This document shows positions 9,250-9,985 of a stretch of DNA of 14,441 nt, piece after piece. The notes beneath the pieces are model-generated. The model searched no databases and had not been told where the DNA came from. It saw only the letters and a list, made by a program, of their open reading frames with translations. The stretch's first letter is position 1. Each line of letters opens with the position of its first letter. Origin of the DNA: a virus (Duplodnaviria; Heunggongvirae; Uroviricota; Caudoviricetes); the IMG/VR virus record IMGVR_UViG_2531839554_000008; one strand, 5' to 3'. The translations under genes were made by a program, and so were the position numbers.

Positions 9250-9272
9250 GGGCGGCGACAGCCGCCTTTTTT
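9250..9272 (+). terminator. terminator hairpin after the capsid gene, doubling as a cosN-like sequence
   Basis: GGCGGC-GACA-GCCGCC followed by TTTTTT; the segment GGGCGGCGAC (9250-9259) equals the first 10 nt of the lambda cohesive end as recalled (GGGCGGCGACCT). Confidence 0.55.
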
Positions 9273-9346
9273 ACGGGTCCTCCCGGTGTAGTGACCTGCC
9301 ACGGGGCGGGAGCGGCGCGGAAAAAGGCTAGTTTTTGCATTTTCAT
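9266..9346. repeat. ~81-bp direct repeat, copy 2
   Basis: Matches 6732-6812; lies between the capsid gene and the Nu1-like gene. Confidence 0.8.
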
Positions 9347-9499
9347 TCGTCGTCATCATCTTTATATAATATTGAATTTTAAGTATTTTTATTTTTGGTA
9401 TGTTAATTTTGCTTGTTTTATGCTCAACATATAGCGCATTTTTTGACCTCTTCTGAAAGTTGTTCGCAAGATGCATGTTTAAAACATTCTGGAGCGGGT

Positions 9500-9985
9500 A
9501 TGGATCGAGAACTGAAAAATCTGATGCTGAACATTAATCAACTGGCGGCGATAGCGGGAATATGTCGTCAGACTGCGGCGGCAAGGCTGAAAAATATCCA
9601 GCCAGCCGGAGGGCATGACAAGCTGAAACTCTATCGGGTGACTGACATTCTGACCTGTTTTCTTGATCTTCCCGTTCCGGCATCACTGGAAGAAATGGAG
9701 CCACATGACCGTAAGGCCTGGTATCAGTCCGAACGTGAGCGCCTCAAGTTCGAACAGGAAACGGCGCAACTCATACCCGCCGATGATGTGCGAAAAGAGA
9801 TGGCTATATGGGGGGAAATCGTAAGCGAGGAACTGGCAAAACTCCCCAATATTCTGGCACGTGATGCCGGGCTTAAACCGATGGCAGTAAACAGAGTGCA
9901 GTCAATTATTGACGATTTGCGTAATCAGATTATCAGCCGGATGGTAAAAAATGACGTAGTGAATGAGGTCGCAAAACAGGCATGA
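9500..9985 (+). CDS. terminase small subunit homolog, lambda Nu1-like (possibly a packaging-redirecting Rpp-type protein)
   Basis: 161 aa from ATG 9500 (GGAG RBS). N-terminal winged-HTH region LNINQLAAIAGICRQTAAARLKNIQPAGGHDKLKLYRVTDIL parallels lambda Nu1 NKKQLADIFGASIRTIQNWQEQGMPVLRGGGKGNEVLYDSAAVI (recalled); similarity continues through the coiled region. The track ORF starts earlier at a TTG (9413). Confidence 0.75.
   Translation: MDRELKNLMLNINQLAAIAGICRQTAAARLKNIQPAGGHDKLKLYRVTDILTCFLDLPVPASLEEMEPHDRKAWYQSERERLKFEQETAQLIPADDVRKEMAIWGEIVSEELAKLPNILARDAGLKPMAVNRVQSIIDDLRNQIISRMVKNDVVNEVAKQA

Follow-up and report, generated by a model that had tools for sequence, protein, structure and literature searches.

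Where would terminase cut the DNA of a satellite island whose annotated open reading frames (ORFs) include a small terminase gene and no terL, portal or tail genes? The question is raised by a 14,441-nucleotide stretch of Caudoviricetes DNA (IMG/VR record IMGVR_UViG_2531839554_000008; hereafter the window), which contains a phage-inducible chromosomal island (PICI) of Escherichia coli. The initial annotation had proposed a lambda-like cohesive-end site (cos) whose cut site, cosN, was a hairpin-forming 10-mer, GGGCGGCGAC, upstream of a Nu1-family small terminase. A lambda-like array of cosQ, cosN and cosB directly upstream of a small-terminase homolog was indeed found on this satellite island, and its likely position is 9275–9499, with cosN predicted at 9304–9315; the proposal was right about the kind of feature, partly wrong in its reasoning and wrong in its coordinates. 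Overall, we read the locus as a packaging module of the EcCI family comprising a terminator, this cos site (cos-B), the island's own terS and a second cos site (cos-A) 2.5 kb upstream, a reading drawn from sequence comparison to which we assign a probability of roughly 0.72. The features around cos-B are as follows.

9248–9272, + strand: intrinsic terminator of the capsid gene (stem 9248–9256/9261–9269, loop GACA, T6), which contains the 10-mer at 9250–9259
9275–9281, + strand: cosQ of cos-B, GGGTCCT, located by alignment and pattern match, 25 bp past the start of the 10-mer
9304–9315, + strand: predicted cosN of cos-B, GGGCGGGAGCGG, with CG on either side and aligning with the lambda ends
9316–9499, + strand: cosB of cos-B, 97.3% identical to a lambdoid prophage (L021)
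9500–9985, + strand: island small terminase (TerS), DUF1441/phrog_141; residues 1–98 form a helper-type winged-helix DNA-binding half and residues 99–161 are island-specific

Lambda-like cos sites conserve cosQ, its spacer, the flanking CG dinucleotides and GGGCGG as the cohesive end's left half, with positions 7–12 being variable (Gifsy-1 differs at 8, 9 and 11; Feiss et al., PMC4669245). Both 9304–9315 and 6770–6781 have GGGCGG, CG flanks and GGGTCCT 22 bp upstream, whereas the 10-mer shares the GGGCGG left half but has neither the CG flanks nor cosQ. The composite signature GGGTCCT-N20-24-CGGGGCGG-N6-CG matches twice in the window, at 6741 and 9275, versus an expectation of 0.00. Across an alignment of 11 cos sequences (five islands, five phages and lambda), cosQ, CACG/GGGCGG and CGCGG are near-invariant; GGGTCCT is kept in 10 of the 11, including lambda, and reads AGGTACT in Fels-1. 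Position 9304 aligns with the lambda ends in this comparison, and the 10-mer occurs in none of the phages aligned. Phages cdtI and Tritos have genome records that likewise start at the base aligning with 9304. With the cohesive end set off by slashes, the end junctions read ...ACGGGTCCTTTCCGGTGATCCGACAGGTTACG/GGGCGGCGACCT/CGCGGG... in lambda, ...GCGGGTCCTTCCGGTGGGGTGGCCTGCCACG/GGGCGGGAGCGT/CGCGGAAAAAGG... in cdtI and, from 9273, ACGGGTCCTCCCGGTGTAGTGACCTGCCACG/GGGCGGGAGCGG/CGCGGAAAAAGG... in the window. The spacer from cosQ to the predicted nick is 22 bp at both 6741 and 9275, as in those DUF1441-type phages that keep cosQ. From cosN at 9304 to the terS ATG at 9500 the distance is 196 bp, versus 190 in lambda; the 10-mer lies 54 bp further upstream. 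Within cosB, TCGTCGTCATCATC occupies an AT-rich stretch at 9347–9360, bp 44–57 from the predicted nick, and is a candidate equivalent of lambda R3.

One further record end was observed in this region. The genome of phage mEp460_4F5 (L020, positions 1–30) begins 5 nt before the predicted nick (CCACG/GGGCGG...) and is without 4 nt (GTCG) of the cohesive-end region relative to its relatives, which may be an assembly artefact at the genome end.

The gene that follows cos-B encodes, by profile comparison, a DUF1441/phrog_141 small terminase that is a remote relative of Nu1. Its only Pfam match is DUF1441, and its best PHROG is phrog_141, 'terminase small subunit' (E = 1.5e-57). The Nu1 family phrog_57 matches at E = 1.3e-6 over residues 70–142, and lambda Nu1 in turn matches phrog_141 at E = 5.6e-8. 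The protein is not a member of the Pfam Phage_Nu1/phrog_57 family model. An N-terminal MerR-like winged helix-turn-helix is predicted. In phages, the gene order is lysis genes, cos, DUF1441 terS, gpA-type terL, W, portal and ClpP/capsid fusion, with terS lying between cos and terL, whereas the island is without terL and the C-terminal tail of its TerS is replaced. Alignment of 26 TerS homologs separates two types. Phage-type proteins have 158–169 amino acids (aa), an acidic tail in 21 of 21 aligned, and terL next to them at the loci inspected. Island-type proteins have 161–162 aa and no acidic tail, and share a distinct C-terminal half ending ...ISRMVKNDVVNEVAKQA. These C-terminal halves are 92–100% identical to each other and reach no more than 58% identity with the C-terminal half of any phage protein, while the N-terminal halves of the island type are 66–85% identical to each other. 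The N-terminal half of the window TerS is 99% identical to a phage-type protein (P0010) of lambdoid prophages. DNA identity to the P0010 prophage L021 is 100% in cosN, 97.3% in cosB, 99.2% over terS codons 1–79 and 57% over 9794–9985; the identity steps up exactly at cosQ and drops in the 3′ part of terS.

The same pairing recurs among relatives. Three island variants carry three cosB types, each with its own phage lineage and a matching TerS N-terminus: the window pairs with L021, variant L026 with phage phi458, and variant L025 with Stx2d_112808. This co-variation is the best evidence here that 9316–9499 would work as a cosB recognized by the N-terminal domain of TerS. It also shows an apparent cassette, cosB plus the TerS DNA-binding part, that passes between islands and phages, the C-terminal half being retained by the island.

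What, then, is the flagged 10-mer? As first described, GGGCGGCGAC is present at 9250–9259, there is an ATG at 9500, and the AT-rich stretch lies where it was placed; the ATG opens a 161-aa ORF. AGCCGCC and six T residues come directly after the 10-mer, and the hairpin that contains it (9-bp stem, 4-nt loop, T6) begins 5 nt past the stop codon of the capsid-fusion ORF (9241–9243). The region 9248–9272 thereby has the GC-rich stem-loop, T-run and position just after a stop that characterize Rho-independent terminators. It folds at –16.2 kcal/mol (z = –6.7), and none of 200 shuffles folds equally well. Among the islands the terminator stem is kept and the loop varies between GACA and GATA. The secondary suggestion that the hairpin terminates the capsid gene is therefore well founded; it is an ordinary capsid-gene terminator that happens to contain the 10-mer.

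The resemblance of the 10-mer to the lambda cohesive end, although real at 10 of 12 positions, is at chance level: GGGCGGCGACCT with up to two mismatches is matched twice in the window versus 1.04 expected, and 60 of 200 shuffles give at least two matches. On its two sides the 12-mer at 9250 has AA and CC rather than CG and CG, and no cosQ was found upstream of 9250. In BLAST comparisons against phages, homology to phage cos regions begins only at ~9268–9274, past the hairpin, and identity to prophage L021 is 41% over 9200–9272 and then 90–100% from 9273. The initial annotation had itself named retention of the terminator with loss of the 10-mer as the observation that would speak against it, and this is what we found in three places. 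In the sister island EcCIIHE3034 and at cos-A of the window, a hairpin and T-run of unrelated sequence precede cos; the island variant of E. coli KSC64 is without the 10-mer, shows an insertion of tail-gene remnants that separates its capsid gene from cos, and carries a different hairpin-like sequence ~35 nt further upstream (read by eye, not folded).

A closer match to the lambda end was also considered as a cos site. The sequence GGGCGGCGACCC at 5123–5134 matches at 11 of 12 positions (0.04 expected) and lies in the primase ORF; it was rejected because no cosQ accompanies it and it codes for T-G-G-D within the primase.

The initial annotation missed the second array, at 6741, whose features are listed here.

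6713–6738, + strand: terminator hairpin and T-run after the SSB gene (–13.2 kcal/mol, z = –4.4), directly upstream of cos-A
6741–6747, + strand: cosQ of cos-A, GGGTCCT, from the composite pattern match, with a 22-bp spacer to the predicted nick
6770–6781, + strand: predicted cosN of cos-A, GGGCGGGAGCGT, with CG on either side and equal to the first 12 nt of the cdtI record
6782–6960, + strand: cosB of cos-A, of the phage cdtI type and 92.2% identical to cdtI

This array (6741–6960) lies between the SSB and capsid genes and is without a terS; its cosB ends in a remnant of a cdtI-type terS start, in which ATG has become GTG and the gene has been lost. An 85-nt direct repeat with 96% identity (6728–6812 and 9262–9346) spans the corresponding parts of the two sites. 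Cos-A was found in five island variants, with cosQ mutated in one: in L026 (3211–3560) it reads GGGGCCT instead of GGGTCCT, a change that possibly inactivates the termination signal. The pair can be likened to cos1 and cos2 of EcCICFT073, of which both are functional (PMC6092414).

Together these features suggest how the island might be packaged. Induction by a lambdoid helper of the cdtI/mEp460/Fels-1 head type, that is, one with a DUF1441 TerS, a gpA-type TerL and a ClpP-capsid fusion, would lead to replication of the island, and the helper would contribute TerL and the remaining head and tail proteins. The island TerS would bind cosB of cos-B through a winged-helix domain near-identical to that of one helper lineage, recruit helper TerL and present cosN, so that TerL would nick at 9304–9315, leave the 12-nt 5′ end GGGCGGGAGCGG and package island concatemers. 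Cos-A would allow helpers with a cdtI-type TerS to package the island directly. The cassette of cosB and the TerS DNA-binding part would be swapped by recombination between conserved flanks, with the tail-less C-terminal half retained. The nicking position, the recruitment of TerL by TerS and the helper range are all inferred in this scheme. More speculatively, the module could be a modular hijacking device, in which a swappable cosB/TerS cassette is joined to a satellite-specific, tail-less TerS C-terminus that captures or re-programs helper TerL (possibly jointly with the 93-aa ORF after terS or with the island's capsid fusion), and the second, TerS-less cos widens the helper range; we consider this extension doubtful. 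If true, it would represent a third strategy of cos-type satellite packaging, beside use of the helper's cos alone (SaPIbov5, P4) and Rpp.

Several observations weigh against the packaging-module interpretation. A short-repeat search of cosB gave no R-like elements, and no IHF consensus with up to one mismatch was found there; the assignment of the AT-rich stretch to cosB comes from phage homology and from co-variation with the TerS DNA-binding type. A promoter scan of 9100–9600 revealed no sigma-70-like terS promoter past the terminator. The cosN ends are predicted, and the record starts of cdtI and Tritos may have been mapped or set by analogy. For the protein, hhalign of the TerS family against lambda Nu1 gave a weak 17% probability, and no PDB match was obtained with TerS (E up to 1) or with the family profile (E up to 10). 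Without its acidic tail, TerS might bind TerL less well. Finally, cos-B is approximately identical to a phage cos, and the role of the island TerS may therefore be other than simple substitution: since the two sites are equal, the island TerS alone cannot discriminate against the DNA of that phage.

This last point makes an Rpp-like or competitive role of the TerS C-terminus a serious rival, in line with the alternative named in the initial annotation, a protein redirecting helper terminase to the island. According to this alternative, which leaves the cos assignment the same, the island TerS would co-assemble or compete with helper TerS, and its altered, tail-less C-terminus would change TerL engagement, block helper packaging and favour the island. 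There is precedent in PICI proteins that carry a winged helix resembling that of TerS and attach to the helper's TerS (PMC6739421), and the composition of the island protein is compatible with such a function, given a DNA-binding half 99% identical to that of a helper lineage and a C-terminal half that is island-specific, conserved and tail-less. Moreover, the repeated matching of cosB to the DNA-binding half would be selected if mixed complexes share one cosB, but the swapping of cassettes could be neutral recombination between conserved flanks. TerS has no sequence similarity to Rpp, and comparison with RppA/B/C (PDB 6HLK/6HN7) gave no PDB match with either the protein or the family profile. 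Island TerS also retains the residues at 99–150 that are invariant across the family, which suggests an intact TerS fold. On this evidence we regard the Rpp-like role as unlikely, if far from negligible.

A remnant origin fares considerably worse. If the cos sites, terS and capsid gene were decaying leftovers from the head module of a lambdoid prophage and played no part in transfer, the dead terS start kept at cos-A would fit, and the capsid gene of EcCICFT073 is without a detectable phenotype (PMC6092414). The ORFs are intact, however, and the same module of capsid, cos, terS and small ORF occurs at at least five integration sites. In the collection index, 5,347 blocks list exactly this TerS sequence, the island-specific half of TerS is strongly conserved, and both copies preserve cosQ and cosN without change, such that we consider decay very improbable. 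Least credible of all is that GGGCGGCGAC at 9250–9259 is itself the terminase cut site, doubling as terminator. It lies upstream of terS and agrees with the lambda end in 10 of 12 positions, the conserved GGGCGG among them, but the match is at chance level, the flanks are AA and CC, cosQ is missing and the position is outside the phage-homologous block. The 10-mer would also be 54 bp too far from cosB, when even a 3-bp change in cosN–cosB spacing is severe in lambda (PMC9026076); one loop base is C in some islands and T in others, and the 10-mer is absent from the KSC64 variant, cos-A, EcCIIHE3034 and all phages aligned.

The preferred reading, an EcCI-family packaging module, also accords with the identity of the element. 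The att core ATGATAGTTAT (11 nt) is repeated exactly at 477 and 11308 (0.01 expected), giving a length of 10,842 bp from attL to attR. EcCIIHE3034 and EcCI18098 are PICIs with a ATGATAGTTAT core at cspD–clpS in Table S1 of Fillol-Salom et al. 2018 (PMC6092414), and because the att core and site equal published ones, the island is a member of the published Gram-negative PICI (EcCI) family; it is a catalogued-type E. coli PICI with a DNA-packaging module. Window positions 9100–10100 are 100% identical to several chromosomes of human E. coli isolates, including F11 and BH100, and the F11 copy of the element sits between cspD/yljB and clpS. An integrase, AlpA, a primase with downstream iterons, the 10,842-bp size and the specific att site are all features of PICIs. 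The remaining features are listed below.

477–487, + strand: attL core ATGATAGTTAT, exact repeat; the core and the cspD–clpS site match EcCIIHE3034/EcCI18098
661–1899: tyrosine integrase (Pfam)
2309–2518: AlpA (Pfam)
between AlpA and the primase in gene order: DUF4222 protein
3981–5735: D5-type primase (Pfam)
6278–6700: SSB, with its stop at 6700
7330–9243, + strand: ClpP-like prohead protease/major capsid fusion gene (Pfam CLP_protease and Phage_capsid_4)
9988–10323, + strand: conserved small ORF, phrog_1561, directly after terS, the position of terL in phages
11308–11318, + strand: attR core ATGATAGTTAT, exact repeat of the attL core

The capsid fusion is 58% identical to its homolog in phage 606R10, with a 29-residue gap after the protease domain. 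The phrog_1561 ORF follows terS in every island examined (111 aa in the window, 93 aa elsewhere) and bears a weak resemblance to designed ankyrin repeats (E = 2.5e-5), in which no one stretch is significant by itself. Other repeats were noted along the island. Iteron-like direct repeats at 5749–5917, just 3′ of the primase gene, consist of CTGTCTACC units and a 26-nt repeat at 85-nt spacing, in the place where PICI replication origins have been reported. A 69-nt direct repeat with 78% identity lies inside both island ends (572–640 and 11171–11239) and may represent integrase arm sites; it terminates in GGTGTAGT(C/T)AATGGTGTAGTTAATT, near the att core listed for PICI EcCIDI14. The non-coding right end of the island also holds a 27-nt repeat with the palindrome GTGGGCTTTTCCACCATTGGTGGAAAA, at 10374–10400 and 11084–11110. 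An Rfam scan gave a single sub-threshold match, to a human long non-coding RNA, which was taken as chance.

Comparison with characterized systems places the module more precisely. EcCICFT073 belongs to the same class of element, with the same gene order of int, alpA, pri, ori, capsid homolog and cos (PMC6092414, PMC6739421), and likewise has two cos sites with helper-like cosQ and cosN, its own packaging requiring helper TerL. However, it has no TerS and uses Rpp (RppA), which attaches to the TerS of the helper, and its cosB resembles that of no phage, whereas the window island encodes a TerS homolog and both of its cosB regions are 92–97% identical to phage cosB. EcCIIHE3034 shares the att core, site and left half with the window island, and its right end is identical in layout (head gene or genes, terminator, cosQ, cosN, cosB, terS and small ORF). 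The parts differ: those of EcCIIHE3034 are of the lambda type (an E-like capsid, a D-like decoration protein, a Nu1-type TerS of phrog_57 and cosN GGGCGGCGACCT), whereas those of the window are of the cdtI/Fels-1 type (ClpP-capsid fusion, DUF1441 TerS and cosN GGGCGGGAGCGG). In EcCIIHE3034 (L028) the cos signature matches three times, at 6728–6772, 9170–9213 and 10065–10109, one of them on the opposite strand, and the cos adjoining terS has a cosN identical to that of lambda. EcCI18098 is matched by site and size only (10,842 bp versus 10.8 kb).

Lambda itself shares with the island a 7-bp cosQ, a 12-nt end with the GGGCGG left half and CG flanks, terS 190–196 bp from the nick and an N-terminal winged helix in TerS, which is predicted for the island. 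It differs in that the island's cosQ-to-nick spacer is 22 bp and not 23, the cohesive end diverges at bp 7, 8, 9, 11 and 12, the R3-I1-R2-R1 pattern and IHF consensus were not found in the island cosB, and the island TerS is DUF1441 rather than Phage_Nu1. Among Gram-positive satellites, the pac-type SaPI1 and SaPIbov1 resemble the island in encoding a TerS that would pair with helper TerL, and SaPIbov5 in being a cos-type satellite with the helper's cos and a capsid homolog, Ccm. These two strategies occur there in separate elements, whereas here cos, a TerS homolog and a capsid homolog are found together in a Gram-negative element.

Among 5,426 complete E. coli genomes, about 160–190 carry the island family, which occupies several chromosomal sites and also lies within prophage terL genes. 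The variants compared here were drawn from this E. coli collection; a scan of genome contigs gave five loci, none shown as an island. The identical TerS is encoded by islands at clpS and mug and by others that interrupt prophage gpA genes. Four island copies (L015 from E. coli KSC64, L030, L036 and L037) lie inside the gpA terL of lambdoid prophages of the presumed helper type, and such insertions tie the island family physically to the cdtI/mEp460/Fels-1 phage type. One genome, GCA_023130455.1, holds three copies of the identical terS. Most island-bearing records have two to three matching places, among the matches listed, which hints at a prophage with a matching cos. In IMG/VR, 31 contigs carry an island-type terS and, judged by their identifiers, are mostly provirus calls in isolate genomes.

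Parts of this picture were already established, namely PICI cos sites and dual cos sites (PMC6092414); terS homologs in some Gram-negative PICIs have also been published, and PMC10111431 makes mention of PICIs that carry a CLP_protease gene. The literature searched yielded no functional study of, or experiment on, the window island family, and a search with the cosN string returned unrelated papers only. What appears to be new is the exact cos anatomy predicted here, the presence of two cos sites with different phage-derived cosB specificities, and the hybrid TerS.

PICIs disseminate genes for virulence and defence at high frequency. For Gram-negative PICIs of the cos type there is, to our knowledge, one known packaging solution, Rpp in EcCICFT073. 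The corrected cos coordinates provide a basis for end mapping, cos deletions and cos-plasmid transfer, and the co-variation of cosB with the TerS half offers a natural data set for DNA recognition by DUF1441 terminases. With its hybrid TerS, two cosB specificities and diverged protease-capsid fusion, the island family appears to have arrived at a solution different from Rpp.

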